A DNA stretch of 64,000 nt from Ophelia neglecta. Lineage: Eukaryota. The notes below the pieces were generated by a model. That model did no database searches and had not been told where the DNA came from. It saw only the letters and a program-made list of their open reading frames with translations. The stretch lies in assembly GCA_965285935.1 (NCBI GenBank), contig OZ260663.1, positions 49,662,001-49,726,000 of the forward strand, given 5' to 3'. The translations under genes and the position numbers were made by a program. Shown here one piece after another: positions 1-56,994 of the stretch (position 1 is the first letter of the stretch; every line of letters begins with the position of its first letter).

Positions 1-1212
1 CGGCCTAATGCCTATTGTCTATTAAAAAAAACTTATTGTACACTATAATTATATGCATGTTCTCTCACCACTAGCACTAAGGCCTCTGATGGGATTCGTA
101 AAAAATCAATATTATTAAAAGCCCAGCTAATAAAAATAGATATACGCCTGCTGAAGGCTATTGAAACAAGTAGCTGATTGCATAGATTGTCTGTTGCTGT
201 GATGTTCCTATACTTTATGTGCCATGATCGCATAAAAAATATATCAGCACTTAACCGTGTCTGGGTATTAAAATACTCTCGGGTTACCGGGCACGGCGGG
301 AAACATTGATCGGCTTAGAAAAAATAGATAAACGGTCTCACAGTAAATGATGCACATAAGCACAATACAAGTTGTTATTTATACTATAATGTGCATGGCG
401 ATCTTGAAGAATACATGGCCTATAACAAGATATATAAGCGACACTTTTCGAGGAACCTACAATTCAGCGCTTTAATATAAAAGCTGTACCTGGCATCTAT
501 ATGGGCCTACCATATTATAGGCCTAGATGTGTTACATTAATGAGATCTGTTTTAAACCTGATAAAATTCCATATAAAACTTTACACGATCTAAGAAAAAA
601 TAGGCCTACTCCAACTGTTGATGGGGATAAAGATGGCCGCAGGCTTATGTGCCAATGCCAATATAGTATATTTTCGAAATCATGCCGAAATTCTGGAAAA
701 AATTGTGGAAGGACGGTTTCTTACACATTCTGATCCAAGCAAGTAAATAAGGAATCAAGGTCTCGCCATTTTGTTATCCCCCCCCCCCCCCTACACACAC
801 ACCTCAGGACTCTATCACTATGGACCCCGCATGTTTTGGAATGCTCACAGCACTCAATCAGTAGGCCTAGTCGCCTATACTGCTGAACCGTGCGCCCTCC
901 CCCCCCCCCTTTTTTTTTCTTTCTGCGCCTGAGGGTTTCTTTTGTTTTGATGAATGATCATTCATGAGTAAATTACGAGTCTCATGTAACAAAAACAGAT
1001 ATGACTTTGGTTCAAAGCCAGGTGAGAACCTTAAGTCGACAAGATTATTTTCCTCAATATAGTTTATGTTTTTTAAGTCAAGAGTGCATTATATCAGCTA
1101 CAACCCGCATAAATCAAAATGTTAAAAAAAAAACTCTTCATGTTATTTTCAAACTTATATATTGACTTGGTCAATTACTACACAACATTTTATGCCTACT
1201 ACTCAGACATCT

Positions 1213-2403
1213 TTATGCTTCGGAAATGGTAGGTGAGGTTATTTCAAAGTGGACCTGTGCAAATGGTGGTTTGTTGGATCTTAACCCCCTCAACTTCCCG
1301 GCTGGGGCTGACACTGTCCCTCTCTCCGCCTTTTCCTGGTGCTGGTCACTGTAGAGGTTAAACAGAGTGCGCATGTCAGGGACCATGGTGGTGTGGCTCC
1401 GCGATGTCAGTGCCAGTAATTTGGGGGTGGATGCAAACCTGCTGCGGGAAGATTTCGTAGAGGAGAACCCTGAGTGCGAAATTCGAGTTGACACTTTGGA
1501 CGTTGGTCTGAGCTTTGGATTCCTGACCTGGTCGTTGATCTCTTTGATGAGGATACTGCGAGCGCTCACTCCGTCCATGATAGCCTCTTGAGGTTTGTTA
1601 GGGGGGAAGTAGCTGAATACGGCCGGGAGCCGAAGGGCCGAATCCAGTGACTCCCCAAGTGGGTGGGTGGGTGTCTTATAGTGGTGACATACGTGCCCAC
1701 TGGGGGCCCGGTACATGGTCTTCTCTCGAGTGAAGCGAGGAATTTCAGCAAAACTCCTGGACCGACTACTGCTGAATACAGCTTGCAAATCTGAGCTGCG
1801 ACTCACCCACTCAATTGCATTCAAGAAGAACTCGTTGTCTCTCAGAGTTGGCTGAGCGCGGCCACGTTTCAAGAGAATGTGTGCAGAAACGCAGTGTCCA
1901 TACTTGCAGGCCAGCAGGAGCGCCGTGTAGCCCATGCAGTTCCGTTCATCCATCGAAAGGCCAAATTTGTTGAGGACCTCGACAAGGATTTCTACCAATT
2001 CTGGGTTACCACTCAGACAGGCGTGAATCAGGGGCGTGTTCCCATCATTATCCGGAGCGTTTACTGAGACGGTCTCCTCTCGGAGAAGACGGGCCACTAT
2101 CCGAGCTTTGCCTTTCATGCATGCATAATGCAATACTGTCCTGTGCATATTATCTCTAATATTCACATAGGCTCCGGCTTTCAAAAATATTTTAATCATT
2201 TTATAACCATCGTCTTCATTTTCCAGTAAACTAGCCAACATGAGAGCAGTCCTTCCGAACATGTCTTTCGAATCCACCTTTCCGCCATGTTTGTTGACAA
2301 GCAGACGAGCTTGATGAATCCTGCTGTCGAGGACAGCTTGATGCAGGGCCGTTTTAATGGGTCGCTTTATAAGGGCGGCTTGATTGGCGACAGGTAGTGC
2401 CAT
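1213..2403 (-). CDS. Intronless ankyrin-repeat protein, ANKRD63-like (ANKRD34/63 group), 396 aa from the first ATG
   Basis: The N-terminal half has about 5 ankyrin repeats (GRTALMLAS, HRTVLHYAC, GNTPLIHAC, GYTALLLAC), followed by a Ser/Arg/Pro-rich tail. LVEVLNKFGLSMDERNCMGYTAL resembles the ANKRD63 segment as recalled from memory. The ORF track starts at a TTG (2415) with an in-frame TGA at 2416-2418, so the ATG at 2403 is the likely start. Stop is TAA at 1213-1215. Confidence 0.88.
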   Translation of the reverse strand: MALPVANQAALIKRPIKTALHQAVLDSRIHQARLLVNKHGGKVDSKDMFGRTALMLASLLENEDDGYKMIKIFLKAGAYVNIRDNMHRTVLHYACMKGKARIVARLLREETVSVNAPDNDGNTPLIHACLSGNPELVEILVEVLNKFGLSMDERNCMGYTALLLACKYGHCVSAHILLKRGRAQPTLRDNEFFLNAIEWVSRSSDLQAVFSSSRSRSFAEIPRFTREKTMYRAPSGHVCHHYKTPTHPLGESLDSALRLPAVFSYFPPNKPQEAIMDGVSARSILIKEINDQVRNPKLRPTSKVSTRISHSGFSSTKSSRSRFASTPKLLALTSRSHTTMVPDMRTLFNLYSDQHQEKAERGTVSAPAGKLRGLRSNKPPFAQVHFEITSPTISEA

Positions 2404-2945
2404 CACACTGCTCAATCAACTCAGCAGTGTAGAGGATGATACCTTTTATCTCCTTATAGGCAGTTTACGGCTCTTCCACTCTGGTCGTGTATACAACCTG
2501 CTCCGGTGTCATGAATAGCAGAATAATTGAATGCACAGTGGCGTGAACTGCCTGTATGTTTACTGTTCGGTTGCTCTTGGTACTGGCTATACCTTCTCCC
2601 AAAGTAATTCAATATTCCTTGCCGACTTAGTCTGTCGAACAAATTGTTGGCATTCAAAAGCAGGGCACAAATCTTTCAACAATGACTTAAGCCGTGATAC
2701 TTGTAAATATTACCAATATGGTATGAACAAAGTATCTACAAATGCTGTTTATATCGGCGATAATTCAGCTGCAACAAACTAAATCTCCTAATATGAACAA
2801 ACTAGATTAGTGCCGAAACGATTTTCCAAAGCACCACAATAAAGACCTTTGTGTCAATAGTCCATGTTTAAGTGCATGTACGCGGAGCAATATTTATTAT
2901 ATTTCACATGGAACAGTATATATTATGTAGCTACTCCTATTAAGA

Positions 2946-2974
2946 ATCTCTCCCACATTTAATGTGGGAGAGAT
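2946..2974. other. Perfect inverted repeat / hairpin (14-bp arms, 1-nt spacer)
   Basis: ATCTCTCCCACATT-T-AATGTGGGAGAGAT. Confidence 0.9.
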
Positions 2975-3869
2975 AAGCAATGTAGGCCTTTACCTATTAA
3001 GTTAAGGCAATTTGGTCCTATAACTTTTTTTATTTTGCTGAGAAGCCCATTCCATCCATGTGTGTTTGTCAGTCGTTTTACCAGGTGGCTGGCTCTCGAT
3101 GACAAGATCTGGTGTGGTCCACGAACGAGCCGGATTCACGAGGCATGAAGTCGTGCCAAGGTCTCTACCGATCAAATTTAATCAATACCAGTCAGATCTA
3201 GTCAGAAGGGACTTGAAAGTCGACTTAATATCTTGATTTATATTAAGGCATATTAATTTTTTTGGTGTCAAGATGGCAGGAATGTTTACTTCGGTTTTAT
3301 GTCGTTTTATTGGTTACGAAAATCAGAGAACGTGTATGCATGGTACACAAAGAGAAAGGCTTTTTTTACGCTACTTAGTTTATAAAAAAACTTGTGGATA
3401 GATTCACTTAGCGTTTTCTTTCTTTCAAACAATCAGAAACTGCTTCCATGATTTGTTTTTCTGGCAGATTCTGGCCGTTTATTAGGCCTATAGGCCTGCA
3501 TTTGTTGTCTTCAATGGTTCATTATACTAAGTAATTGTCGATCAATTTAACTGGTCGGGCGTATAAATGATATTTGAAATATTCAAGACCGTTATTGTTT
3601 CTGGTCACTCTATTATTGCAATATAATACAGGTGATGAGTTGTTTAATTTGTACCTCAGTAAGTTATATATTAGCATAGCTAGGCCTATTGTATATAGTT
3701 GGCCTACTGTTTATATTGTATAGTTTATTGGTGACAATTCTTAGAAAATGTGATCAATATTGATAGAGAATACAATACTAGAATGGTAATATCAATACTA
3801 CTTAATATTTATTGACTTTCCAATAACATTGGGTTGATTTAAATTGGGTGTTCTTATTGTTATTGCTAA

Positions 3870-4125
3870 TTGGGTGAGACCAGACTGTTTGGAAAATTGT
3901 CAAACTGTTACTGTGTCCACTGCCAATCCTTAGATACTGATAAAAAGTAACACTTAGACATTGGATTAGGTCAGGTACTTTTGTTTCAACCAATCAGATA
4001 ATCACAGATCTGGTCATACTTTGTACGAATGTAGCACAAAGTAACATTTGGTCGGCAAAGAGAAAAATAAAGAATAATATTCATATTTATAAATTACTCC
4101 AATCTTTGAGGTTAGTCCCGATTTG
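3870..4125 (+). repeat. Degenerate dispersed repeat, copy 1 of 3
   Basis: Shares the ordered blocks GGATTAGGTCAG...TTGTTTC...CTTTGTACGAATGTAGCACAAAGTAACATTTGGTCG...ACTCCAA with the copies near 24 kb and 36.6 kb. Confidence 0.65.
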
Positions 4126-7100
4126 CAATCAAGTCACACGGGATTCAATAAACTCTATTGATTTGATATAAAAACTAAACTTTACTTGACTAATTGATGT
4201 TTTTATTTTGCTGATGAAAATATTTATGCATTTGTGTCGTCTGTTACGTACTTTAAACAGTATTTGAACAACTAGACATTCAAACATCGAGTGTCTGCGC
4301 AACTAGAGAACATAATTACAACCGTAATGCTAACATAATTATGGCTCCGTAAGTAGTGGGAATTATCAGCGGCTCTAGACGAGTATCCACCTGGCGGCAA
4401 ACAGACCAACTGTAATACAGCGTTGCACACTGCCCATATTCAAAGTTTTTGCTTTAATGCGATATAATATTCCTTATTCCTGCTCTTGGGAGATTACGGG
4501 TCATTGAATTTAAACACTTGCATAAAATGAAAATATCAAAGAATGCAATTACATTTCATATGAACATAATTATAACACATAAATGGACAATGAAATAGTT
4601 GTTCGTGTAAATTGTTCTAACTTAGGAAACATTAAATTTTACATAAGCATTCTTGTATACATCGGACACATACTCGCGTGACGTATGTTTATGTGAAGCC
4701 TACAAAGGCTACAAAACTAAACCACAAGAATTTGACGTACACACAGCTAGACTTTTGATAAATAGTCAAGATGTTTGGACAACCGCATAAATCTGAAACA
4801 CATGTATGTTTTTTTATTAATATTTGTCCAATTAAGCGTAAAGGTTTTAACAATGTGTTTGAAGGTATGTTAGATTCATGGTTCGGCATCAGGTTTTAAA
4901 AAAATAACAAGTATTAAAGGCGATAAAAGACGGAATGGCGGTAAATTGTCGCTTACGTGAGAGGTTCCTACAATTAAGCTGTAATATAACTAAATCCTAA
5001 TACAAAAACATTGTTTGTATCTAAACGCCCAGGGATTCATATAACACATTGAGGCGCCTTAGACAATGTCACACGCCCCTTATCCTATTTGATTTCCCTC
5101 CCTCCAGGGCTAGGATTTGTCATAATTTCTGACAAAAAAGGTAAACTTTCATTAATTATTATATCACCCCATGGGTTCAGTGTTTTTCTATCTTCAACAA
5201 CCAGGCATTAAAGTGATATAAAAATCTACACACTGGCCGTTACATGTTACTCGTGCCCCTGCTATTTACTGAGGAGAGTAGCGGATTGGAGACCATTATG
5301 AGCGAGGTCGATAGCTAAACGTCTGCTTCTAGAACATTTTATCAACGGTACCTATTCATGATTAAATTTTAAACTAAATCAAGGCGAATTTTTGTTTTGT
5401 TTTTCCAGTTCAAGAACGAACGCTTCAAGTTGAACTACACATTTTAAAAAGAATCTTAGGATATCGAAGATTATTGTTCTGTAAGTTGTTCCTTTACCTT
5501 TATCAATTATGATAAGATTTAACAGTTGGTCGCCTTAAATAAGCTTATATACGTCTTATTATAATAATCATGACTAGAAAATCAGATGTTTGTTTACAGA
5601 TTTTGTAGGTTTTCTATACTAATTCTATTGATAAGCCACTGGTGGTAATAACTTTAATGCTTCTATTAATGTATTATAATGTTCCCCTTTTGAGTGAATA
5701 CCCTACCATATTTATTTGGTTAGACTCCTGTGAATTATGTTATTAGTGAACCAGGTAGTCTTCCATCTCCCCCTGTGTAGTTAAGCTTTTAATACATGCC
5801 AGGTCCATTAACGATGCAATATTAAATAAACAGTATACTTTGTATGAATTAAAGATCAAGCTTGCTACAAGTTTTTCATCTCGAAAGCTAAACATAAAAT
5901 ATATTGCGGTGCTTTACTATCGAACCGAGGCCAAAAGCTTTTTATAGAAAAATTACCAACCCGGACTGTTATATTTCACTATTACGTGAATAATCTTCTA
6001 CTTTCAAATGCATAAAATATATACGAATCAGAGAGTCAATAACGTTAATTTTAGTCCTCTTTGTTGTCTGCTTTATTTGTCAGAAGTCTGCCAGGACACG
6101 TAAGAAAAAAATAAGAGGAACTCGATGTGTCAATTGTTCAATAATTCCAATTAAAATGGGACCAAACAATAATTGTCCAAACGTGAAATATTTAGAGAAG
6201 GGCGTCCACAAAAAGCTTGCAAAAGTATCTGTCATTTTGTTGGCTTCCGACCAGGTGTTTCTAAGCCCCCTCACTGACTAGACACGTGCTCAATCGAAAG
6301 TCTTCAATGAAAAATTGGACCCACCTTCCTACTTCCCCAATAGTCTCAAGTTTCAGATACATTGATTCAGATTTTGCATGAGCAATATTATATCCGCCAC
6401 TGCTAAGCAATCGATAGGATTAGAATAAAAGACTTGACAAAATTGTTACTGTAAGGAAAGATGATTGTTTCACAAAGGCGACGCGTGCTACAATTTCTTC
6501 TTTCTAATAATTCAGTAACAGGCGTTCAATACATTTAAAAGGCATTAACACTGCCTCACTATTCACAACTAGCCAAATTATCTTGTTGGGGGCTTTTTTC
6601 GTACGATTTTACAGAAATCTTAGACGCGCATTTATCTTCTTTCCGATGTTAAATATTTGTTAGATTTTCTTGAGCATCTGTTTTCAAATGTGTGAGCACG
6701 AACTGCAATAAGAGAAGCGTAATTGTTTACCAAATAAATTGTTTCAATAGCTGCGTAGAGGTGTTGCTTGTTAAATGATATATATTAATTTCACTAATTC
6801 ATATGCTTCAATTGATCAAATAATAACTAGATATCACAAAACTGAATAAAGGAAACAAAGCCAATTAAAGTATCTGCTACTCCATGGCGTTCAGATTACC
6901 AGTTTTGTTCCTCAGTCATTATGTGTTAATGCAGTGGGTATTGATTACAGTTAATGAGTATTCGGTTACCCAAAGATAAAAAAAGAATTGGATTAAATTA
7001 AGGCAATTGACAGAAAGTGATTTAAGGGAAACCAAACGGTTAGAAATCGGAGGCAACTGACGTTTCCCACCCAGAAATTTCCAAACTAATAATAAACTTA

Positions 7101-7224
7101 CATGTCTTAAGAAGTAAAAACGAACTGGCCATCTGGTATCTTGATCAGTCCCTCTCGCTATTCCCAAGGAAACGTTGCTTATAGCATGACCTGTTTCGGT
7201 TAAGTTTACCAAGAGAAGCTTTAT

Positions 7225-7292
7225 TGTTGTTTGTTGGGATGTTTACTAAATTACAGCTGACAGATGTTTACTTGTGATCAATGTAAACACAA
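7225..7292. promoter_or_regulatory. Homotypic cluster of forkhead-binding motifs with E-boxes (candidate enhancer)
   Basis: TGTTTAC at 7240 and 7265, GTAAACA at 7283 and TGTTTGTT at about 7228, with CAGCTG and CAGATG in between. Confidence 0.45.
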
Positions 7293-10200
7293 TTACCGTA
7301 ACAAATGACCGGTATGGGGAAGACACCAGCCAGACTAGTCTTCATGTCTTGCCCAGCTCACTCAAGTGGCTCGTAAGTGACCCCTGCTCTTTTCCTGGGA
7401 AAATACCCATACCCTTCCTGTGCATAGTTAGATAGTTATAATAAGGTAGCTGAAATGGATATTTTACTGGTTTCTGAGATTTGCACAAGGCATAACAAAT
7501 AATGTTTACGGGAGTGGACACTGCACTATGAACAAAATATGATTGCTTTCAGTTGAAAGTAACTTATGTTTTGTTTGTATATTTGCATACAATATTATGA
7601 GAGTGTTTCTAAGGGCTTCTATAGGGCCAGAAACAAAGATAGGACTATATCATACCACGAGTAATGTCTCTTTTAAAACCTGCTTCCCATTTCCACCAGA
7701 TAAACTCCTAAATGACAACACAGCCTCCGTTGCTATATCTTAAGTTGTCAAAAATAGACAAACTATCCAAACAATTTGTGTGGCTTCGCGCTCCGCTTTG
7801 TTTTCGCTCCACGCCGCGTGTACACTGTTTATTCAAGTGAGGGCCCCGAATCTAGAAAGGTTAACTAGACACGAAAACGAATAAATAAGCCCACCTCCCG
7901 TGCTCTTTGCTGTTGAAACAACCATCTCAAGCTGAAGAACTGGCAGAAGAGCTGCTAAAATATCACCTGTGAGGCTTTCTATAAACAGATGGGAACCAAC
8001 ACTGGAGTGAAAGAATTCCGTTCGCTCTACTCTGTGGATTCCAAACAACGGTTCGGTCGTTGTCAGACTTCATCCCTCTGAATGTTTCGATTGTGATTAT
8101 GTTGTGGGGCGTAGCGATTTGTGCTGTTATCTCCAATAAAATACAAATTTGTTTTTTTTCCCATGAGAGGAAACTCAAACATGTCGCATATGATATGGCA
8201 GGAAAAGCACCCATTGCCAAATTGTGTCCGATGATTTTATAGCCACTACTGTAGTTTAAAATATTAATTTGATGTTTTTTCTCAGTGGTGTGTGGTGTGT
8301 ATAAAAGACCTCAGTGAATATTGGCTTTGTTTACCCCAATTTAAAGTCATTTTAATGTGATATTTTTGTTATTGCAATGATGATGCAGCATCAGGTTAAG
8401 CACCTTCATCTTTTCATCGAATTTAATTTTTTAAAAACAAGAGGCTTGGATACACAGAACTGAATAAATAGCCTAAATGCTAATTGCGGCCAAGGAAAAC
8501 ACAGTGATCGATTGTAATGTCATTCTGTTACAAATGTCAGCTATGGCAACACGATTCTATTATTACAATAAGTACCCAATAAGGTACGCATTTAATAGCA
8601 ATTTATCATTCAATTAATTAATTGAGTTTCATTTAGTTTAGGCGCGAGAGTATATTGTCACAATTTGTAGCTGACATTTATACCACAAGATAACAGCCTC
8701 AGGGGAAGTTCAATTGGGGAAAGAATGCAATATTTGATAGATGTTGCATATTAAAAATGTTGAAGCAGAAGATAAGTTCAAAAGAAAACCTTTTCAGGTG
8801 ACAGCGAGCTGCCAACAAATTGCAAATTAAATATCTCGATAATGGTACATTATCTGTTATATCTCACACCTCGGGCGACGCGCACATGCGATTCGTATTG
8901 TACGCTGGAGGAGTGCAGTGAAGTAGTATAACAAGGTGTAAATGGGGTTTTCACAGGGAAAGGTTAGCGCCTTTATTCGGCCAAAATCAGCTGGTTGATT
9001 TTAACTTCTTAGCTGTGCACTTTTGCTTACGCGGAAAGATACAATAATGCAGTATTTACTCTTTTTCTGTATGATTCTTTTCCTTATTATTATTGATCGT
9101 CAAAGGCGTGACTCGAAAGTTACATTCGCGTCTTAACTTTTTGCACCGAAGTAATAATTTTTTCAATGTTATTTACTGACTTCCAATATTAAATAAGGCA
9201 TTTAGCAGCAAGTGTCATAGCACCCATTGCCTTTTAGTGCAAGCCTTCCCTGCACCAAAACAAATTAGGCTTAAATACAAAGGTAAATAAAATGAAAAGG
9301 TGCTTACGGAACTACACTAAGTATTTAGATAGAACTGTAAATTGCCCTTTACAGAATAAATCTTATTACATTCTCGCGAAAATTCTATAGACACGCATTA
9401 CATTCAATTATTACTTGTCGCAGCAGGATTTAGTAAACAAATCTGCTCGGAAATAAAACATTGTCGAGATTTAGGGACTGTAATGCTTTAATAGCCTCGG
9501 GGCCTGTCAAACCTCATCGCCCACGGCTCCTTTCAACACATTTGTGTTTATTCGAAATCCTTGGTTGCACAGAAGTGCATGGCATTTTCCTTTATGCTAA
9601 TATTTATCATTATCGTAATAAGTTTATGATAGGATTTAGGCTTTCTAATTTATGACGGCCCTATCTAGTATAACCAGTTCGTTGTTGCTTCATGCGGTCT
9701 ATGCGGCATTAAAACTAATCCGTCTGCAAACTTTAGAAATATGCAGTGCTATGGAGATGGGAGAGATCATTATAGTGTGATTATATATGTATTTGGGAAG
9801 AAAAAGGAAAAGTATAACAATTGAAATATCAAAAATCTATTTATCCTCAACTATTTTATTACCCTCAAACACTTTCTTCGCTAGCAGGTCATTTGGTCAG
9901 AATATATCTCAATAACAAGTAAATTTATGTATATTAAATACTTACAATACCCGCAGATGCTTTATTCATTGGCTATGTAACTTAAGCTTGAGAAAACACT
10001 AAAAAGACTGATCTACTCTCGCCTAGGCAATAAATAAGAGAAATTAATGGTAATTGCAGCTGAAGGTATTTGATTGCCTCTTTTCTGCACTCTTCACATA
10101 GACAAAGACTAAGAACCGTGCTGCTCGCCTTGCCAACGCCGGCATTAAGAACAACAAGGCTCCTATGCTGGATCACAAGAAAATGCAGTAAAATCACTCG

Positions 10201-13200
10201 ATCTGTCGTCCATAGCTGTGGAATGAGCCTTGTCCACATTCTGCTCTGCCGGGCTCCAGGCTAGCAACAACTAACAATACAAACTATGGCGATCTGGTGA
10301 GAAAACATTAATCTAACCCCTCAATAGATCATGAAGAGCAGCACTCTGTCATAGCCCTCCATTTTTCCAATCCGCCAACCGGAATAGGCATTGTCCTCGC
10401 GACACTCAACGCCAACTGAAGTCCCGGTAAATCTGCAAAAATGAAAATAGCCAAAATACTTGTTGGAATTAAAGAATGGTGTAATTTAATGGCTCTGTCT
10501 AAGTCGGTATTATTTATGCTCGCTCAAAGCCGATGGTTAAACAGAGGGTTGCTGGTTGTATTATGCGCAGAAGCCATCATCCTCTATATAACTACACTGT
10601 TTCCTGGACACCCAACATGAATGAACCCCGACATTTTAATCATAGACAGATTAGACATGAGGCGAGCCACAAAGGATTTAACTCAGATAAAATTGTTCGA
10701 CCATCCTCCCAAAGCATCTCGACTTTCAATGACACTCCATGTCGGAGGAGAAGACAGTCGAATCCTTCTAGGCGTATTTACCTTCATTATTGTGTTGAAG
10801 CTTTCCAGATAAGAAGTTTCAATTCCATCAGAAACTAATTCATTATGAACTCCAGTAAATAATCTTTATCTATTTAGATTGCGTTTATTGCTTTCTTGAC
10901 ATTAATAAAACAGCAGATATTTGTCTCTGAAACTGGTCCGAGTCTATGGACAGTAAATATAAAATACTGGTAATATATGCGACAAAAACATCGCATATAT
11001 TGAAGATAGTAACTTAAATTATGGGAAAGAATGCCAATAAAGCCAACAGGCTATAAGACACATTCCATCCCCGCCTTACCTAACTAAAGTTCAGGAACTC
11101 TTTGTTTTGGGCCGTGTATATTAAACGAAATGGCATAGCGACACATTATGCGCTCAGCATGCTGGGTGATCTGTCTGCATTTCAAGCCTGTCCAGACCTT
11201 CGGCTTCCCATGTGAATCTGCCCGATAGACTGTCCGACATACATGCACCGGCGATTTATACTTTTATGATAGGCCTAGAGCAAAGCAATGTAAAAAAGTA
11301 TTTGGGGTGTAATGTGTGGAGGTGGGGTTCGACTGCCAGGGAAGCTTATTTATTGAATAATTTCTTTGAAAAATGTACACAGGCGCAACAATGTCGGAAA
11401 TATATCATTTACAGCGAAATGAACCCGAATAAAAAATGATCACGTGCCACCTGTAAAATGTATACAACCGGTCTGCAAATATTTGCCAGCTAAGTTAGGA
11501 CCAGTTTCAAAATAAGTAGCCTATTCAGATATTAAAATCGGCAGTTATGAAAACTCCATCACATCCTTTGCGCAAGCTATACGGACAGCATATAGGCCTA
11601 TACAGTTTTTTTTTGAAAATGTCAAAAGGCATAAAATAGAATTCGAGTGCATATAATTAATAAGCTTTGTTCATGATAGGGAAGCACAATAAAACAAGAA
11701 TGCTAGCAACTCTATTAGAAACTAACGTTAGGTTTTTGTCTTACATAAACAAGAAGGAGAAGCAGTGTGGTTATGTGTTACAGGAAATAGTTCGGTTTGG
11801 GTAATAACACTGTTGTTTAGATGCTTACAAATGGGAAAGATGGTTTATTCATTCCTTACATAAACACTAGTCTACGGGAAAAAAGTTTATGTGTTGTAGT
11901 CCCTCTTTTGATATGCAATTAGAGCTTTGTTGTTTCATGTGTTGTTTCATGTCAGCCAAGAGATAGGGAGGCTATTGGCTTCAAACAAAATGGTTTGCAT
12001 CAGAGCAACTCGAGCAGCCAACACCTATGGAAATTTTCCTTGTACATGGAATCTATAATACACGAAATAAATACCTTCCGCCTTAGCTAATTTAATGCTA
12101 TGGCTTTGGAAACGTAGTTTTTCAAACTAACTACATATGGCTCTTCATTTGCTGCCTACGAGCAAAGAAATATACATAGCCCTATAATTATCGGACTACT
12201 TGTATTATTGGCAACAAGTCCTCATGGTTGGTCCATGATTGATGAAGTTTGTCATTTGATGAGTAACGGTCACATTTTTATCGTTTAATGCAGGTGCCCT
12301 TGGGTGTTTCCATCAAGGGACTTGTTGGCTAACTTGCTTAACTGTATAGGTATAAATGGAACCCTGACAAAAGCGTCAGACAGATGTTCTCTGCTGACAG
12401 TCAGCCGAAATGGCATACTTTGTAAGGCTATTGGCTAACTACAATAACGTTTTGTAAAGACCTCTAACAGAAACCCCACATGGGCGACTCTATACCTGCA
12501 AAGCTGCTATTTTTCTAGTCTTCCTCGCGCCAAACAAGTCACTATTTTTGATGGATAATTAAGATAATATTAATCCGATGCCTTGCAAGTGAGCAAGGTT
12601 GACAAGTGAGAAGACAGTCGTGTCTCACTTCAATGGTTTCCGGCATTCCGTTCGGCATATGGCCGCGCGCGACACAATGACAGGGCGTGTCAACGCCAAT
12701 TGAGCGTACCCAACTGCGACCAAATGACATTGAGCCTCCCAATTTCCACCGTCACATGAAGTACCGGTAGTTGAATTTCATACACGACATCATCGATATA
12801 ATTAGCCGGTACTTGGCGTTGAACACTCGGATGAAGTGACCGATGCATTTAACCTACAATCAACACTTCTATATTAACCACACCAAAACACACATACAAC
12901 AAGGTGTCAGCGAAACAGGCAGTTCTGTTTTAATACTATATCTCATATGCACTTAGCAGAATTCGTGTGTTACTAAATGGTCACATCAATGAAGTAAAGT
13001 ATTCAGTCGAGGCAAGAAGGCGGCTAATCGCTGGAGCATTCGTCATACAGGACAAAAGGCTTTTCGACCGTTCAATACCAGTTTTCGGTTTTCTATTGAA
13101 ATCAGATAAAATGGTGACAAAGCAAGTCAGTTGAAACTCTCCATTCTTCTAAATATTTAAACATTTCATTGACGTTGGTTAGTGGTTATGATTAAAGTGG

Positions 13201-32602: not shown

Positions 32603-32608
32603 TTTATT
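32603..32608 (-). terminator. Candidate polyadenylation signal for FoxD (3'UTR about 1.2 kb)
   Basis: First canonical AATAAA noticed on the minus strand downstream of the stop; an alternative lies at 32215-32220. Confidence 0.35.
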
Positions 32609-35839: not shown

Positions 35840-35915
35840 GACTTCTGATTGGCGGACTAAAATCAATATGGACGCCCATTTGTGTCACGTGGCCTACTCG
35901 GTAGCTCAGTGGGAA
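35840..35915 (-). promoter_or_regulatory. FoxD proximal promoter: CCAAT (NF-Y) box, CACGTG E-box and a GTGGGAA CSL-core motif
   Basis: On the minus strand, GCCAATCAG spans about 35845-35853, a CACGTG lies at 35886-35891 and GTGGGAA at about 35909-35915. The context is CpG-rich and about 370-430 bp upstream of the ATG. Confidence 0.5.
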
Positions 35916-36569: not shown

Positions 36570-36830
36570 AATTGAGACCAGAGAGTTTGCCAGCGAACAT
36601 TGTCAGAAGATGCATGGTAATCTATTCACTGAAAGCCGGACAAAATGTAACACGTTGCCAATAGATTAGGTCAGACACTCTGTTTCAAACAACTAGATTA
36701 TACCAAAGTCATTCTTTGTAAGAATGTATCACAAAGTAACATTTGATCGGCTTAATCAATGAAAGGGTATATAGAACAGTAAAAGAATATTCCATACATG
36801 CTCAAAACTTTCAGGTTGGTTTCAAATGGC
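36570..36830 (+). repeat. Degenerate dispersed repeat, copy 3 of 3
   Basis: Contains GAGACCAGA...AGATTAGGTCAG...TGTTTCAA...CTTTGTAAGAATGTATCACAAAGTAACATTTGATCGG. Confidence 0.65.
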
Positions 36831-39800: not shown

Positions 39801-42800
39801 TAAGACTTAAATTAATTACATTCGGATCGCGACCTTTCTGTTGTTTGTTTTGTCATCAGATGTAAATATGCCCACTGATCTATCTAGTAATAACAAATGA
39901 TCACGTGTGGCCATTTCTAGATATCAAAAGCTTGTATTTATGTGACAGAGCTTTGATACAAAATGGTTGCATGTATACTTTGTTCGTAGATCTACATGTC
40001 TGATTTACGCCACTCAACGAGTAGATAACATAGAGATTTGTAGTTTACAGTTAGGTTAAATTTAACTCAATTGCGCACCAAACTCTGTCAAGTGTAGGGC
40101 GGAATAAAGAAGTCTTCTTTCACGTCTTTCTAGCACCAAAGTCCGCACAAATAAAATAGTTAAGTAAGTTAGGCCCTGTTAATTTGTGTGACCTAGTTAT
40201 AAACAGCATCTTCAAAGTCTTCTTCTTGTTTTTCTGATTTTATTTTGGCTAGTATTGTAACCTAAGAAATAGGCCTATTACAATAGTGATTTGTGTAAAA
40301 TATGCGACAGAGAACATGTCCGGGGGACGGAGATACATGCAGGGGAGGCTATCGCTGCTTGGTCGTCTGACCCAAGGTCACGACCTTTACCCGCCTCTGG
40401 CTCAGTCGATTACCACGGATGGTAGCTTAACCTTGGCCACAGAGGACACGTGGCCGCCACCAAGAACTGTGTCTTCATCCTACCCGACACAACCCTCCAA
40501 GCTAGTAGAAATCATTTGACGGTTGGAGGCAGGTGGTCGCTCAAGTCCTAAGGATGTTCGGAATAAGTTTAAGTATTTAAGCCTCGACACTAATCAAAAC
40601 CGGCATCCATAAACACAGCAAAGTAGATTGTAGGCAATATATCAATTTTCTAAGCTTCTGCATCCAGGTGATCTATCATGTAGTATCCCCGGATAGTTAC
40701 ATCTCTCGGAAAATATTAGGCCTATATCATTATGTAGGCACATGGCAATATGCATTTCAACGATGGAAATGGGTAGGCCGATTAGTATATATGTAAATGA
40801 AGCCTACCTGGAATTGAACAAGAGCAAGCCTTTAAGTTTTTTATTCGTGTTCAATTTAAACAAACGCAACATAACGGTGTTTTCCAGATTTCATGATCTT
40901 TTTAAAATGGTGCACACACTGCACGTTTATATTATTTATTTTTTCAGTCCTATAAAAGTGGTGTCATTGGTCCGTCATTGAGGTGTGTCATTAATCAGTC
41001 CTCGAGATGGTTTCATTGTGGTTGATCGTATACTCAATTTCCAAGGTCATGATATCATTTCTATTTGTTTAATAGCCATATCATTGTCTTTTCCCCATGT
41101 ATATCCTAAAACAGACCGATTTCATTAAAAACACACTTTGTCTCTAATGCTAGGATTACTTAGAATTTCAAATGAAGTATGACCTTGACTTATCTCGAAG
41201 GTCAAGAATCCATTTTAGTTCCACACTGTAATTGAAACAAACGTTGAACCTTATTCATTGCTTCAGACATTTACTATCATCAGATAACCTAAATGATTGT
41301 TTGGAGTCATGCCTAGCCCAATTTCACTTGTATGGTACTTGAAAGTAACCCACTGTGGGTAGCCCTCGATGTGTATTCTTGGGATGATGCATGAAGTGGC
41401 ATGGGATTTAGGGATACACTACAGTTTGTCGCTACATTAGATCTTCATCCAAGTCACTGCGCCTTCTCCGACGGAGGCCAACGGAGGCACACTACCAAAT
41501 GTCGACAGTCGGATGAGCAAAGATCAACGTATCAGATTTTCCTTATATAAGATTTAAACAAGAATTAAGTTGGTTCTTCATAGTCACAATGTTTGTAAAG
41601 ACATTGCTCATTTACCATGCATCATTGCCAAAACTAATGGAAAATTAATGCAAAATTTAATTTTGGAACCAGACCATGCACCCAATCTCACAGTTTAACA
41701 AAGTATGGGGAGGTATTGATAGCGGCAGAACGCCCCAGAATCAGCCGACAAGGGCTATCAGCCTAAAGTCAAAAGCCAGGGGAGGAGAGCAGGCGATGAG
41801 TATCAGCAAATCTGATCGCTAATGATGGAGAAATTAATCAACTGCTGTTTGAGGTCTAACACACCATATCACTTTATACACATTTGGCCGACGGTTTGTT
41901 TGGAATTAAACCATCACAATATTGATATGCATGTAATTACCAGTCTTGATGTTTAATAATGTCTCGCTTCTGAAACAAATTAGACGCAGCCGGAGGAACG
42001 AATCTGATTAAAACCTTGTTAATTATTATTGACAGAGATCTCTGTGGAATTTTATGGGTGAGTAGCAGATGATATTGAGACAGTCATCACTCACATCAAA
42101 CGGGGTAAAATATGTACAAAAATATATACAAATTGCCAAATATTAACCTTATTATTTCTTCAGTACTTGTCTAGGCTTAATACATTTGAATGTTATCGGA
42201 TGTTGTAAATGATCATGTCCGTGTTTCACTGCAATCCCCTGGTTTTATTACTGATGCTTGAGAAGTTTGTCATCTTTAACACTCAACAGCTGTCCATCTT
42301 ATAGAACAAATGAACCGAAAGGCACTCTCCAACCTCTTTCAACAACGATTCGCGGGCTAAGAAAGCGATGAATGCTTTAGGGACTTACGCCGGGTGTCTC
42401 TTTGATATGCTGGTCAAACAGACCACAATTCACCAGCAAATGTTTATTGTATGTTAAACGTGTGTTGGGGGATTGATCTAAATATTAGTGTACAAGTGCT
42501 CGGCGGGGACAGTGCCCCTAAACGACCATATAGAGGGGCAATCAGCTGGAATCAGCTGCTAATTTCATCGATCGCCTCAGAAGAAGGATTTAGAGTAACA
42601 TCTATTTTACATTTATATGAATTGGGTTGAGTAGCCCCGTGGCGCACTGCGCCCTATCGACAGTATTATCCTCGCCTGCCGCTATCGTCCGACATTTGCT
42701 ATCGACAGAAGTAATCCATTTGACGCTGTTGTCCAAACTTATTTACTCAAAAGCTTCCCGCCATTGAGAAAATCAAAGGCACCACTGGACATCCCACAGT

Positions 42801-45800
42801 CCGCGTATTGTAAGATTGTGTAAACTGGAAGCATTCTCCTTTAAGCATCTTGGATTTTCTCAGCTGGATTTACGTAGCATTATTGAACGGTCTGACGAGA
42901 GAGGCGAGCAGACGACAGACGGTGAGAAAGGACAGCAACTGCTTTTCTCTTGAGGGAGTTGGAGTCTTGTAGTGCCTCTATTTGCGGTTCTGAGGCACGG
43001 TAGGGATCGCTTACTGGCTATTGCGAAAAGTTGGCGTGTTTTGCATCTCCTGTTGTGCCTCAACCAACGGATCGGTTACATGGAAGGCAGACGATGTCTA
43101 TGATGTGGGCGCGTCCCGTGGCGCTCTACAAATCTACATTGTTCGACAATGGCGAGATTCCTGTGGCGGATAAACAATGTACAGTCGCTGGTTGCGCCAT
43201 TATTGGCCTACCAGCACTCTGCAATAATGGAAATCTATCAGAAGAGGGAAATTCGCATGTTTACTCTACTTTGACATCTCTAGCCTGGTGTTAACTGATA
43301 CACCTATTATGTCCGTATAGGCACGTAGCATATGTCCAATAAACGCCTATATATGTTTGTGTCTAATTATACTTATTGTCTGCTTAAAGCTATTAAGGTT
43401 ACATGAAGCTCACCATACACCTATTAAATATAACGGTTTTCGACAACAGACGCAGTTCTTTAAAATATGCTCATATAATATATAGGCCTATAACCAATGA
43501 AAAATGTGATTTGGCAAAATGCCCTTTTTGGAACTTATTTAAGGATTCCCCTATAGGCGTATATATGTATAATTATTACATAATGTAGGCTGAGCCATTT
43601 GTCTTAAGCCAAAAATATAAACTCAGCCATCTGGATATCTTCAACAGATTTATGTCACTATACTGTGTGTATAACTGATATAAGTACGACATAAAGCTGT
43701 ACAAGGTAATCATAATGGCCGCAAGACATATAAAACAAACGGAAATGGTTAAAATTACAGTAAAACCTACTAAAAAGACCGCCTCTAGATTCATACCACC
43801 TGCCACTCAGGTCACTATAGTGTAGACCATACTGTTGGCATGCAATGTAAAATAACCTATATAAACAGACCAACCCTCTAATCAGACCAGCAGTATCCAG
43901 TTTCTTAATAGTCAGGTAATCTTTAACCGCACTGAGCTCAAATGAGATAGACATTTTTCATATCAAAGGTGTAAAATGTTTAATTCTTGCCAGAGACCTG
44001 CGTGCTAGTCTGATAACAGAGCCATGATTATTTCTCATATCAACGATTAATAAACAAGACCCTTTCTACAAAGGCTAACCTGTAAAAATATACACAATTA
44101 ATGACAAAAACTGTTTATAAGTCTATCTAACACTATAAGGCTAACTTGATGACCTCTCTGACATGGGATCCCCAGAGCCTAAATGTTACTTCCGCTTTCA
44201 TCACTTTAATTACCTGAGGATGAATTGGATGAGATCTAAATTGACTCTTAAGTGTGGTCTAACCGTATGGGGCGGGATATATTGGGCAGCTAATTGAAAG
44301 TTTAGCCCAGGTTTGCGTGCCGACACCTCACCACCATTGCATGACAAGGGTCCATCAGATGTGAACACGTCGGTTAAGGAGTAAATCTGGCGAACTTGCC
44401 TTTAAGAACCGAGTTGGCGTGTAGAAATAACGAGCCGTCTTCAGCGCGTAAAGGACCATAAAATTGGCCGCATTGGGTGAGCATAAAGGAGAAATTTGCG
44501 GTTGAACATGGCCGATAGGCCGACCACAATGGACACCAGCTGCGTCATAACAATGTATGAATCTTGCCGAAAATATTGATTACATCGTTTACAGGTGCCT
44601 TACAAATATAAGACAATGTTTATTCAATTCCCCTACAAGCGACCAAATTGTTTAGATTGTCAGGTCTTTAACTCGCGGGCGCTGATGGTTTGCAGAGGAT
44701 GTCAGGTCGTCAGGATCAAAGACGGCAATTTTATTTCCAATAGTCTTCTCGCCTCATCAAACGCCCGGATGAAATTTCTCGAACGACATGCGAAAATATA
44801 CGAAAAGCCGAGGAATGTAACGAGAAGCAGCTGTTCCTACTGAAACAAGCATACCAGCAACACAGGAAGGCGTCGGCGAAATGACTCAAGTGCGCGTTAG
44901 ATCTGTGTGGCAAGGCTATAGGTCTATATAGAAGTTTGTGTCGACTGGTCTGGTTAGATCGATTTATCGGTGTTGCATGCAGAGCATTTATCTGTCTATA
45001 GGCTTAAATCAATGCCAGTCGTTTTCCAAATACAACATACAAATACAAATATCTTTTCAAAGCAAGAAAAATTATAAAAAACGCATATCGTCCGTTAAGT
45101 ACACACTTTAAAAGGAGTTGGGTCATTGCTATAGGCCTACATGTGACTGTCGTAAAACTAGGCTTACACTTAGGCCCTAGAGGTTAACTTAAAATTTGCG
45201 CACAGGGCTCAGACATAGCAAGCTAGACAAAAGTTACATCGGGAAATAAGAAGGGGAATGGGGCTCTTCATCTGATAAGCGTAACCGACTTCCGCGCTGA
45301 TTAACTTACGTTATATGTGAACACCCGTGTAAATGGGGTTCCAGCCAGTGGTTGACTTTGAAGAATGCGGGTAATTTGCAAGCCGGGTCTACTTATCTTC
45401 ATTCTTGGCTTAAACCGCCATTCCGAAGATCCCGCCAAACTAACCAACCTCTTGGCACATATGTTAGTTATCGCTCTTGACGCTTTACGGTAAATATTTT
45501 AGCAAAATGTTGTACTTCAGAAAGTCAACAGCCGGTAAAATAATTACTGGGAGGTCACAAGAGGAAGCAAGTTGCGCAGTCTATCAAAGCGCGGCCGCTG
45601 CTTGTGTGTATAGGTTGTTGGCGATGGAACGTGACCATAAGCCAAACTACAGACAGCTTGAGTCAACATCTCAGCCTACTCGAGTAAATACACCCTGCTC
45701 GGGTGGCTAGAATCAATTTGTTTTGTTTACGACTCTAATAAACACTCATCTGTTAATTCGATTAGAGCAGTTTCCGAAGCACCCGGATCCTGTCGATCAA

Positions 45801-46086
45801 ACACGTTCCGGATCAGCGCCAGTGACTGGCGAGACCCCGCCCGACCCGCTCAGAACTAGGCTCGGGTTATCAAGGCGCTCGTCATGGGAATGCATTACCC
45901 TCGGCCACCCTCTCATCAGAAAACCCCACTCGGCAAGACGTGCTATACTCCTGCTACTGCTATTATAGTAGGCCTATACACATAAACCAGTAATATCTGC
46001 TTGGCGGCAGGATATTTAAATGAATATATTTGCAAACATGCATTTGACGAGGACTCGCTTTGTTTAAGCACATTTTGATTTGGGCA

Positions 46087-46088
<2 letters not shown>

Positions 46089-46129
<41 letters not shown>
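46089..46129. repeat. (TA)n microsatellite
   Basis: About 20 TA units with one interruption. Confidence 0.9.
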
Positions 46130-46131
<2 letters not shown>

Positions 46132-49100
46132 ACTATAATTAAAAGAAATACGAAGAATGGTGGTTTCCGGTCTCAGCCATTCCATATCAATTTTGCCAAT
46201 GGTGTAACAGCCAACGTTCACACATTCTTAGGCCTATAGGGGGCTATGGGCAAGAAAGGTGGGGGAAAGTAGGCATCTCCCTGACACCTGTATGCCATAC
46301 AACTTGTCGAATTTATTCCGTGTATAATATTTGTCTATTGATGTGAAAGATTCATCAGATTTAGACTGCTTCGTACAATGAGAATTTTTTTCTCGATTTT
46401 ATTATAATTATCGGCAGGGGGCATAAACACACAAAGGGGGCATAACAATATTTATTTTCTGAATAAAATCTCCTGTTTAAGAACGCCTCAATGTAGACCA
46501 TACCCTTCAAATCAATTATTCTTAACATACCCGAACTCCTACTAATATCGGCTTTAAACTGTGTTAAATGTTTCTTAGTCCATGGATGCATGAAATAGAT
46601 GCTTTGAAAAACTTTTATTAAGGAGTATTACACTTCGAGCTATTGGTCTGCTTAAAAGAAGTCTCATTTTATAAAATGATGATGACTAGTCGGTTCTGGC
46701 AAATAGAGCCCCATCGCAAAACCATAAGCTGCTTTCAAAGCAAACAGATTTTGTTATCAAAGGGCTTGTGATGCCTGTCTATTGAAATCGGAAGAGGCAG
46801 ACCAATAGCAAAAACTTTTGAAGAGAGCTAGGATATTGAGTGACTCCTGTAAAAGGTTTCATTCTCACTAAACACTTGAGGGCGTTTGCTTCTCTAGCTT
46901 CCAAAAGACATCTGCCCCTAAGGGTCTGATAATTTGTCAAATGAAACACCTTATTATTTTCAGACCGACAATATAATTGGCCTTAAACTGAAGATTGAAT
47001 AAAAAAAGACTGAATAAAATTGAAATGAATTGCCAGCACACTTTTCGCTAAAATTGCAAACGATGTTATAACGATAAATTTAATTCACTGATAAAACTTT
47101 ATTACTAGGCACATTGTAAAATGGCATATGAAAAATTATTGATACTAGTGCGCTAATGCATGATTTTCGTCAATGAGTCAAGAACGTTTCATACCATGCA
47201 GAAGCCTGACGCCCCATAACACAACTCGCCTTCCGGTTCTGATATTTGTACCCTCAGGGGTCCCTTGTGGAGCACCCAATATGAGCGCACCGGATGCTGA
47301 ATTCGTCACCTCCGGTCTGCGCAGTATTCATGTACGCAGCGGGTGCGCGTCTTCAAAGCGGAAAATGAGAATCGATCTCTACCACCACCAAAAGGCACAT
47401 TTTGTTCAATCCTTTCTTAATCTGCCATCCCCGAGCATCGCGGCCTCGCTTAATGGATTGCTACAAAACATCCAGCGAGCAAGCTTTTAGTACCCTACAA
47501 TAATATTTTCGCTGTATGCAGAGCGATCAATTCAGTTTAAGACAACAAAACACAATAAAACACAAACAGGACCAGGACCATGGGTATCTAGCCACCACCG
47601 CAATTGATTGGCTTTGACATTTTGAAAAGATTTGCCTGTGACTACCAAACTATAGGAGCCCGAAGAAGATAAAGGGTTTTGTAACTAATCTGGTATTTAG
47701 TAGCGATCGCCGCCACGAGTGGCCCACACCAATCGTTATAGGACTACAGGCAGCTTTGTAGACAGCTAGTTTAAAAGCTCGTGAAACTATTGAAAGTAAC
47801 GTAAATATGAAATCAACGCAGATATCTGATACATTAATTTCAGGTGTACAGCATGCCTCCCATCGTTAATGACTACTTCCATTCAAGGATTGAAGGGTCG
47901 CCCCCTTTCGATCGCTAAGGTCAAAGAAAAACGTGGGTTTTCTATATAAAATAGGTTTAATTGATTTTCTAGATAATTTAATTGCATACAGCGAATCATG
48001 GAGGTAGACAAAAACTCCAACAACAATTATACTGATTGTTGCAAGGGCATGAGTCTACGAGTAGCCACAAGTGTTTTTCTGTACATAACATATAAGATTC
48101 GTTTTTCAAAGCTCTGAGCTCATTTTGACTAAAGGCTACAGGTGTTGGTGGCCGCAGAGGTGAGGGATGATGCTGTTCAAAATAACATTTTTTCTTCTTC
48201 GGCAAATTGCTTTGAAATCAGGCATTCCTATACCCGCCGCCCCTGCTCACATTGCCTGGTGTCATTTATTCCTCCTTATCGAGTAGTAGATATGGGTCTG
48301 TGACAGGGTTATTCCTCCGGTCCCATGTTTTTGTGCTGTACTATTATTGTCTTTTTAATGTAGGCCAATAGTTAGTCCATACTTATATCTCTCCATCTGC
48401 AGTGCCCTTCATTTTTATTTCTTTTATGTTTTAACTTTTTCTTATTGCACATGCCGTTGGTTCTGCAAAATTGCTGCTAATAGTGACCTCGTTTAAAACC
48501 TCCCGATCTGAAAGAGAAAAGGCACTAAACGAAACGTCGTCAGCGCCAACAAAACTATTAGGACAAATCAATGTTATTGCAGTGGTCCCATATTGCAGTG
48601 GTCCCATGGATATGGAAATAAGATACACGTCAAATTTCATGACGAGTTGTATTTGGTTGAATGTGGCACACAGGGTGAGTGAAGACCCACATTGCATTAT
48701 GGCAGCCATCTTGTTTTTCTGTCAAAAGGATTTTCATCCAAACCATTGTTACTCTATGTTGCAGTTAACTAAATATCAAATATTCTATGCAGTCTCGTCT
48801 TCTGGTAGGTTTTCCAGAGCTCTCAGGGCAATAATAAAGTTCACCAAGCTGGAAAAACAGAGTAAAGGGGCCAGCCTATTTAATGTGTTGCTGGGACGTG
48901 GCTTTTGATTATTTCGGACCGATTGAATGGACTGTTCCTCGTCAATGATAAGATTTTGTCTGCCGGTTATGCACTCCCGTTTTTAAAGTTTAGCATTAAT
49001 TGCATTGCTAGCAAAGGTAATAAATGCAAATATTGATCAAAATGTGCAAAATGGGCAAAAAAACAAGATTTTTTATATATAATTATTGTCGTAAAGCACC

Positions 49101-52100
49101 TTTATATAAGACTTCGTGGTAAATGTGCAAGGCGCTTTGTGACTTATTTTGAAAAAAAAACTTTGATCATGGCTTTACTTAGACTACTACTGGATACATG
49201 TGTGATTTCGATAAACATCCCTTTTTCCTAGCCAGTATGGACCCATACAAAATAGTGAAAAGTGCTATTAAATCGGAGATGGATGTACGGGTGCTTGCTA
49301 GTAAGCCTACACGATTATTTCAGATTGGCAAACCCTCTGTTATTCGTGTACTGAACACATGCTTTTAATAATTCATTCTATATTTATCAATCTATGTACC
49401 ATCATTACCACATCAGTTTCAGCTTCAATACATGCACGAGAAATGGTTCAATTTAAATATTCTATTGACTTATGTGGGTTTTCAAGAGTGAACGATAACA
49501 TACGTAAAAATCATATTGTGGCTATAGCCCTGTTTGAACATAACTTGTTAATGACCGATTGCTTTTGGCGGATGCTTTCGAAATTGTACTCATTGTTGGA
49601 ATATTGACACCTTCAGCATGTTAGCTATCTGTGCTAACGCCTCGGCAGGTATATATCTGCAGATGGCCGCCACTAATTAAATACTTTCTCCACCGCAGAG
49701 AATGACCAGCCTTCTATTACAGCGACACCTCATTGATGTGCTAGCAAATGGGTAAAGCCAAACTGACAACAATTCAAGTTGATCATTATTAGTTCACAAT
49801 GATCCAGTTGATAGGATCTGACAAGGTGTTTGGACAATACGACCACCCGACATCTATACGGTAGCCAGGTATTGTCGTTTGAAGAGTCTTCGCGCGTCTG
49901 TTAGATGGAGTCCGGTTACGGCCTTAGTAAAGTGTCCAACTAGGTGTCTACGGTCATACACCTGTTGTGGAGTGTCTAACGGCCTTTAGTTTCCGACCTG
50001 GTGTCATAATTACACTGTCGAATTACTTAGAAATCGCCATTTAATTGCCAAGCACAAGCTTTTGTCCAGCGTTCCTTTAAGTTTTCGTGAGGAGAACCCA
50101 CAAAAGTGTGTGTTCAAAAGACAAAGGTTGACATAGCTTTTCATGTCACATCAAAACACTTAATGCTGGTTGCACAGGTGCAACCACTGTTTCAGAAAAG
50201 ATGCGCAGCCTTATGAGTTTCAAATCACCAAATTGAGTCCCACCACGCAAACTTAGGTATTTACTGTCCACAAATGCGAAAATTATATTAACATGCCTGT
50301 GCTGGAATCCAGTCTTAAGTTTATTAAGAGCTGACCCGTGTCACCTTTCAGTTCTATATTTTCACAAACTAATTGGTTTTGAATAGTTCAAAAGTGTACA
50401 AACGCTAATAAATTTCTACTTTTATGCGTGTCACCATAAATATATGGATTCGAGACATTTTATTAATCCAGCATCGGAAAAACTATTTTTTTTTAGATAT
50501 AAACAACAATGCAATGATGTTTGTGAACGAGTTTTTATGCTTTGTTTTAGAATTGGGTAAAGGTCATTTCCCCAGTGAAATGGCACAAATCTTCAGTCAG
50601 CATTTCGTTGTTTATTTAACTAATTCACTATCCATTATTGATTGAACAAGAGTAGATCTTCCTCTAAATTATGTTTTTGTTTTCTTTTGGACGACAACTG
50701 TGTTATTTCTAGGTCCGGCTTTAATCGCGCACAGTGCATCTGGCTGGTATTTGTAAAAATAATCTGTTAGATCGAAAGCGTATTAGCATTCGTCCTCGTT
50801 CAGCCTGATCGAAGGGTTCTCTCCCTGCCCCAGGGGCTATCTGGACTTCAATGGTGGGCATCTATCCTAATATTTTGCCATTCTTTTCCTTGTTAGTACA
50901 ACCAGCAACAAAATAGAGTTTCGATTATCACAACAGTTTAGATTGGGATGAAAATGGCTCTCATGTAGTGTGCTTGGGCGATATTCAAATAAATGATCAA
51001 CTCGTGTCTTCGTGAGTCGATTCAAACAGACTTAAATACAATTACTTGTTTTAAATGCTGCGACTTCGCAATGAACGGTGCCGACGGCTGACAATTCTAA
51101 CTTTGGGACAAAGACCAGTCTTCCGTTAGTCCTAAGGCACATTGCTGACTGGTTCACGACAAACTTCAAGGTGTCAGAACAAAATGTTTGTACGACAATC
51201 GCTGGTCAGCAGTGTCCCTTTCCCTGAAGAGAAGAACCACACGCAGCATAGTACATAAACCCATATAGGCCTATACACATAGGGTTAACATTTATTAAAG
51301 GGGATAACCTTTTCACATGTATGCATATATATTACTCATATTACTGGATTTGATAGTTAACAAGAGAATGGCCCACATAAAGGCAGACAGATCATTGGAT
51401 GGACGTACTTAGTCGTGGTACATATTTCTCCGGAGCTAACAGGCTTTTGGCATTGAGCGATGTAAATGCCTACTGATTTATCTGAGAACTTATGATTCTA
51501 AACTCCCTTTACAGTCTATGTAGCCAATTATTCTCATGTTCAGCGTAAGGTGTAGTGGTGAACTCCTTCCACTGTATCTCTTTCCTATTGCGAGCAACTT
51601 GCTGACATGCTGATATATATAGGCCCTTAGCCTAAATCGCAATGTTAACCTTTTCCACTTAAAATTCCGACGGTTCCTTTAAAGACCAAACAAGTAACCG
51701 ATTTCATGAATATAATCAGATAATACGCATGCATTGACCAGCCTTTATAAATTAGCATATGGGCTAATATACTGCGCAACAATAATTTTTCCAAGGAACA
51801 TTCATGATAATCAAAGCCTTAGATCGTGTTACCCATATAGAGACTGTACCATCGGGAACTTTCCGGCCGGAGATTCCACATAGGTATACATGGAGGCAAT
51901 GAATCTTCATTCCAGCGATTTATCAGCTAGGCGTTGACCGTCCTAGATTGACGGAGATGTGCTCAATTTGCATAATGATCATCTGCCAGAGGAATTGGTG
52001 AAAATTGATGGGCGTAACCAATCAAGCAGATCTTAGCAGACCTACCAACGGCTTGAATCAGAAACTCTCTTTAGTGCTGTAATGGAGGTAGGATTAATTG

Positions 52101-56963: not shown

Positions 56964-56994
56964 GATTATTTAGGATTATTTAGGATTATTTAGG
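56964..56994. repeat. Tandem repeat (GATTATTTAG)x3
   Basis: Three exact 10-bp units. Confidence 0.85.

Follow-up and report, generated by a model that had tools for sequence, protein, structure and literature searches.

Elements of the Tc1/mariner type duplicate a TA dinucleotide on insertion and are excised with the non-transferred strand cut a few bases inside the element (PMC6943129, PMC2874221), leaving footprints made of the terminal 2–4 bases flanked by TA (PMC6943129), such as taCATGta of Tc1, as quoted in PMC3520976, and TACAGTA and TACTGTA of Sleeping Beauty (PMC6943129, PMC2874221). Short palindromes that occur far above chance have been described elsewhere; HIP1 (GCGATCGC) of cyanobacteria has unrelated flanks and is described as selected and quasi-periodic (PMC5861425, PMC4390886), and TACATGTA, an abundant TA-framed 8-base palindrome of Phytophthora promoters, was argued to be a possible factor site and not a footprint (PMC3520976). 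Here we analyze the 8-base palindrome TAGGCCTA in a stretch of 64,000 nucleotides of the Ophelia neglecta genome (assembly GCA_965285935.1, contig OZ260663.1, positions 49,662,001 to 49,726,000, forward strand), the whole of which is called the window. The copies of this word are probably excision footprints of a TA-duplicating cut-and-paste transposon with GG...CC ends, rather than a regulatory code.

The window contains 25 exact copies of TAGGCCTA by exact word count (span 518..51273, without strand), at 518, 601, 862, 3483, 3681, 11270, 11593, 14039, 14282, 16272, 18551, 20142, 23906, 30993, 31060, 32382, 35180, 38612, 40270, 40717, 43483, 45132, 45969, 46229, and 51266; all of the coordinates listed in an initial annotation of this DNA proved exact, and no further copy is present. 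A hundred dinucleotide shuffles of the window gave a mean of 0.72 and a maximum of 3 copies, and window-trained Markov models of orders 0–6 predicted 0.80, 0.79, 0.95, 1.7, 4.3, 15.4, and 21.1 copies. At orders 2–4, TAGGCCTA ranks second only to poly-C among the over-represented 8-mers of the window, whereas orders 5–6 are circular as a test because their background is largely built from the TAGGCCTA copies themselves. The GC content of the window is 39.0%, not the annotated 37%. The full TATAGGCCTATA form accounts for 5 of the 25 copies, and of the 50 half-sites, 28 are followed on the outside by an A and 27 have T as the base after that. The gaps between copies are Poisson-like (coefficient of variation (CV) 0.97), and the spacing looks random. 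As annotated, the copies do not belong to a repeat family, their flanks being unrelated and none of the 25 lying in repeats detected within 674 kb of compared DNA; when the window repeats were compared genome-wide, no paralogue covering any of these copies was found. The proposed preference for AT-rich spacers was not borne out, the GC content within 100 bases of TAGGCCTA being 37.6%, vs 38.0% near any TA. As to the reported loss of the motif from about 54 kb, exact copies do end at 51,273, but CpG-rich DNA continues to about 58 kb, and at the window rate the chance of finding no copy is P = 0.06 for 51,274–57,000 and P = 0.03 for 57,001–64,000.

Across the 762-Mb genome, TAGGCCTA occurs at 69,501 sites, vs 17,017, 12,128, and 3,592 for the same-composition control palindromes ATGGCCAT, TACCGGTA, and ATCCGGAT. 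The genome mean is 5.8 per 64 kb, of which the 25 copies of the window represent 4.3 times (P = 3e-9); the annotated restriction to one domain therefore stands as a real local excess, but only quantitatively, the word being abundant throughout the genome. Its distribution was followed in an even sample of 100 evenly spaced 10-kb stretches (1 Mb) from three chromosomes (C1, C2, and C5), divided into 2-kb bins with a CpG observed/expected ratio (o/e) of <0.4, 0.4–0.65, or >0.65 (CpG-poor, middle, and rich), spaced copies being counted after removal of tandem arrays. The density of TAGGCCTA rises from 38 through 48 to 129 per Mb across these classes (rho 0.18, P = 6e-5), that of TACATGTA follows the opposite trend (219, 129, and 109 per Mb, P = 6e-4), and ATGGCCAT showed no significant CpG trend in the same sample; with tandem arrays kept in the count, the trend of TAGGCCTA is uneven (first 410 kb). 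The 264 kb around the window agree, the 69-kb CpG-rich block around it containing 27 TAGGCCTA and 6 TACATGTA and the remaining 195 kb 7 and 51, respectively. Density rises with CpG o/e, used here as a proxy for methylation. The window itself has three times the density of the CpG-rich class (P = 3e-6) and is comparable to the top 6 of the 100 random stretches; we infer that target choice, not retention, lies behind the CpG bias. Only 4 of 119 TAGGCCTA copies in the random sample fall in dispersed-repeat alignments, which cover 8.4%. Side by side with these, TAGGCCTA was seen inside tandem arrays at two loci (L025 and L031), and a young repeat (L011:6727-6740 and L036) carries overlapping TACATGTAGGCCTA plus a TAGATCTA, so that host repeats can spread scars.

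How the word arises can be read from repeats at other places in this genome. A survey of paralogous repeats (1.66 Mb) yielded 58 non-tandem 6-base indels. TA frames 13 of these, where 2.8% would be expected (P = 6e-9), and 7 form perfect TA-XY-Y'X'-TA palindromes, where 0.31% would be expected (P = 7e-10). By polarity, roughly 10 of the 13 read as insertions, one as a deletion, and two are ambiguous; removal of the deletion (L121) and of an ambiguous alignment (L212) leaves 11 of 58 (P = 5e-7). Two independent TA-to-TAGGCCTA events were found. In the first, TA+GGCCTA is present in 14 of 16 lengthened alleles of a repeat family with 605 pattern matches, the first 100 listed including none with the insertion and 15 with plain TA; the 14 alleles probably represent a single event multiplied by the host repeat. 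In the second, one TA of another repeat family, with 1,463 empty copies, has 11 lengthened alleles, including one TAGGCCTA and one TAGATCTA, and at the same site the copy at L053 carries TAGGGCCTA, absent from 15 of 16 paralogues. A third family includes TAGCCTA and TACATGTA among 10 lengthened alleles, and one further TACATGTA allele could be a near-tandem duplication. In the two exact events and the related forms, a single TA stands in the empty state and one TA on each side of the insert in the filled state, the inserted cores GGCC, GGGCC, and GCC having unrelated flanks and the GGCC, as read from the alleles, not being templated by them. These 6-base insertions at TA back the excision footprint, one of the options offered in the initial annotation, and by extension most of the 24 non-coding copies of the window are likely scars of insertion at a TA.

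The predicted course of events is as follows. An element would insert at TA, duplicating it, and on excision its non-transferred strands would be cut two bases inside the element, so that end-joining retaining both overhangs would yield TA+GG+CC+TA. TAGGCTA/TAGCCTA and TAGGGCCTA would result where repair was uneven, and composite sites where the TA of a scar was hit afresh. Composite forms do occur in the window, at 3483, 3677, 16270, 18493, 18551, 46229, and 52612 (all without strand), among which TATAGGCCTAGGGCCTA (16270..16286) likely arose when a first scar received another insertion at its TA; the others include TAGGGCCTAGGGCCTA (18493..18508), TAGGCCTATAGGGGGCTA (46229..46246), and the variant TATAGGCCCTATAGGCTA (52612..52629), past the last exact copy. 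Scars would accumulate patchily, at about 3–4 times the rate in DNA that is CpG-rich and probably unmethylated, and would then be eroded by point mutation. The window contains 54 one-mismatch sites. One-mismatch words show an excess at each of the four positions, with transitions and G>T leading, and by a rough estimate their excess (64) compares with about 56 excess exact copies, a spectrum that suggests neutral decay.

An internal control is provided by TA|CAGT-ended elements, which are present in this genome. The ends of their MITEs (miniature inverted-repeat transposable elements) number 44, 38, and 15 per Mb across CpG-poor, middle, and rich DNA, vs 242, 132, and 101 for TACATGTA, whose lean toward CpG-poor DNA they share, in a sample that includes the window neighbourhood and in which CpG decay may add to TACATGTA. 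TACATGTA has matching TA|CAGT donors; by the same rule, TAGGCCTA would require GG...CC ends. TAGGCCTA appears to behave like a Tc1/mariner footprint, donor ends having been matched only for TACATGTA. In common with the Tc1 and Sleeping Beauty footprints, TA is duplicated around 2–4 bases, the gain at TA is six bases, and shorter and longer variants exist; unlike them, the core is GGCC, demanding GG...CC ends, none of which were found in the scans described below. The known footprints come from single sites or assays, whereas tens of thousands of scars are fixed across the genome here, with a bias toward CpG-rich DNA. HIP1 shares the excess over chance and the unrelated flanks, but in contrast to its described selection and quasi-periodicity, TAGGCCTA is randomly spaced and, it appears, decaying and insertion-born. 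The Phytophthora TACATGTA resembles it in form and frequency; here, however, there are insertion alleles, and the Hox cluster, as described below, runs counter to what a developmental code predicts.

Several observations weigh against excision of a GG...CC element as the source. The element itself, TA|GG...CC|TA, was not found when up to 1.84 Mb, or <0.3% of the genome, was scanned for terminal inverted repeats and element boundaries; 30 DDE_3 and 30 DDE_Tnp_4 loci, whose ends were partly visible, showed TA|CAGT ends and no TA|GG family. Two MITEs have ends that read TAGG, but these are better explained as ends starting with A beside a duplication of 2 bases. No GGCCTA indel separates alleles at the TAGGCCTA copies of the window in the single sample compared, through contigs of three runs, which drop variants (the best 12 of 25 indel rows for 301–20300 and 10 of 10 for 38401–46400), and two other repeat sites yielded no TAGGCCTA allele among 25 and 17 lengthened alleles. 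Two independent exact events stand for some 50,000 excess sites; the genome count consists partly of tandem arrays, the random Mb giving 119 raw vs 86 spaced copies; and some of the TA-framed inserts (ATAT and GTAC) may be fold-back copies of flanks. The donor may be rare or extinct. A TA-duplicating, GG-ended transposon group is not named in the accessible text of PMC8533490 and PMC4455052. A PF07592 profile search was without match, as was its control, and the DDE_1 profile gave at least 150 matches in the genome. In a separate observation, loci L182–L211 contain many young DDE_Tnp_4 (Harbinger/ISL2EU-type) copies, with frames of 520–610 aa and 98–99.9% identity within families.

Four candidate donors were considered. 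A 397-base MITE with TAGGGYCAGTCGG ends (L218 1503-1899, L222, L230, L232, L240, and L074 1455-1850) matches at 1,240 ends across the genome, which invariably read TAGGG...CCCTA; nevertheless, two empty-site comparisons are 2 bases short of the TA-duplication prediction, its flanks favour AA where TAGGCCTA favours TA, and its empty sites agree either with AGGG...CCCT ends and a duplicated AT or with no duplication, those at L074 and L217 with the latter only. A MITE of about 512 bases with AGGTTGCAG...CTGCAACCT (AGG...CCT) ends (L280, L032, L042, and L084, with a decayed piece at window 48755–48852) has 1,606 end matches and is frequent in tandem arrays with 0.9–1.4-kb units; its 2-base duplication is variable (AT, TG, GT, TC, and CT). 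The AACTAGGCCAACG family was discarded because its common end extends beyond TA; this end presumably resembles the 3' end of a Helitron. Finally, GGGG...CCCC ends appeared from TAGGGGCCTA making up 27 of the first 50 TAGGNNCCTA listed, but genome-wide the figure is 1,607 of 7,135, a weak lead.

Repair that needs no transposon is the alternative that survives best, although we regard it as unlikely. A TA-specific staggered break would be filled in, and a repair polymerase would add untemplated G at both ends before joining; the failure of the scans to reveal a donor accords with this, as do the longer G/C form TAGGGGCCTA, with 1,607 sites vs 482 for its reversed control, and the counts of 170 G2C2, 30 G3C2, and 6 G4C2 in about 1.4 Mb. 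However, G3C2 exceeds its AT..AT control (18) only modestly, the predominance of exactly two G per side suits a fixed cut position, and sites of this kind also carry CATG and GATC inserts, which are not G-runs, CATG matching the resident TA|CAGT elements. Still less probable is an origin from MITEs with AGG...CCT or AGGG...CCCT ends, in which repair would have to be unusual, preserving three bases per end and dropping one duplication. A 486-base AGGTTGCAG...CTGCAACCT copy (L280) does lie at the host-repeat site of the TAGGCCTA and TAGGGCCTA alleles, and 11 of 11 sampled ends of this family of 1,606 end matches fall in bins with a CpG o/e of at least 0.4. This origin, however, predicts NAGGCCTN with direct-repeat flanks, and non-AT direct repeats number 20 vs 16.6 expected; T..A flanks account for 170 of 437, the predicted +8 allele is found in 0 of 11 lengthened alleles, and ATAGGCCTAT makes up only 33 of 136 motifs, without left-right coupling (P = 0.72).

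Another option offered in the initial annotation was a dispersed binding code for a chromatin or zinc-finger factor marking an unmethylated developmental domain, and this prediction failed at the Hox genes, which were labelled by reading their homeodomain sequences. The 12 Hox cluster loci, with a CpG o/e of 0.76, contain 3 TAGGCCTA in 51.7 kb (58 per Mb), vs 22.7 expected at the window rate (P = 3e-7). The Hox-type cluster itself extends over about 550 kb on one strand at 60.53–61.08 Mb of contig C1 (L243–L268, L272, and L273). At 26 non-Hox homeobox loci there are 30 TAGGCCTA in 123 kb (243 per Mb), and eight 10-kb homeobox neighbourhoods, with 0, 0, 1, 1, 4, 9, 0, and 1 copies, showed no difference from CpG-rich stretches taken at random (P = 0.39). 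Even where CpG is retained, the word is distributed patchily and is not a general mark. A selected site for such a factor, to which the greater density in CpG-rich DNA, the rate at the non-Hox homeobox loci, and the factor-site argument made for the Phytophthora TACATGTA would lend themselves, is thus very improbable in view of the poor Hox cluster, the three of eight homeobox stretches with none beside one with nine, the random spacing, the decay-like excess of one-mismatch words, and the origin by insertion inside repeats. Single TAGGCCTA copies may have been co-opted later.

If TAGGCCTA is indeed a product of excision, past transposition would have produced, incidentally, one of the most over-represented words of this genome, which motif finders applied to promoters and developmental loci of such animals would misread as a factor site. 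Counts of scars would gauge transposition without a surviving element. A class of elements ending in GG...CC would remain to be found, and the opposite CpG biases of TAGGCCTA and TACATGTA would show from sequence alone where each of two transposon classes acts. The footprint mechanism is already known from single sites. More tentatively, we speculate that an undescribed GG...CC transposon with a preference for unmethylated DNA could have visited about 50,000 TA sites, leaving almost only scars, that CA-ended elements could scar methylated gene bodies, and that both words together might preserve a fossil record of how germline chromatin was laid out. Literature searches at listing level, with supplements and most subscription papers outside their scope, found no paper on TAGGCCTA as a genomic motif.

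The window opens within a CpG-retaining domain (1..58000, without strand; o/e 0.53–0.97 per 2 kb) that starts about 12 kb upstream and, judged by CpG o/e as a proxy, is likely unmethylated. A FoxD-type forkhead protein is encoded in a single open frame on the minus strand (33806..35545), assigned by protein comparison, its best well-covered named relatives being those of molluscs and a brachiopod. This open reading frame contains the sole coding TAGGCCTA, at 35180–35187, within Ile-Gly-Leu codons; an in-frame Gly-Leu insertion was ruled out, and the copy is probably no insertion, because the alignment with the closest relative, P0002, is gap-free. An ankyrin-repeat open frame (1213..2415, minus strand) is without a TAGGCCTA copy, as is the CpG-depleted gene body of a CBWD/CobW-family gene (58001..64000, minus strand; o/e 0.09–0.29). 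For the latter, the annotated label was upheld by Pfam matches of two exons on the minus strand, 63664–63834 (cobW) and 59106–59351 (CobW_C), a third frame being without match. The FoxD frame adjoins a CBWD/CobW gene, and in vertebrates FOXD4 and CBWD are likewise neighbours. Positions 43755–43900 hold a decayed copy of a highly abundant TACAGT-ended MITE (contig depth in thousands). At 3855–4136 lies an old dispersed repeat with 69–77% identity to many genome copies, one of which (L137:1619) has a TA-to-TAGGTCTA insertion.

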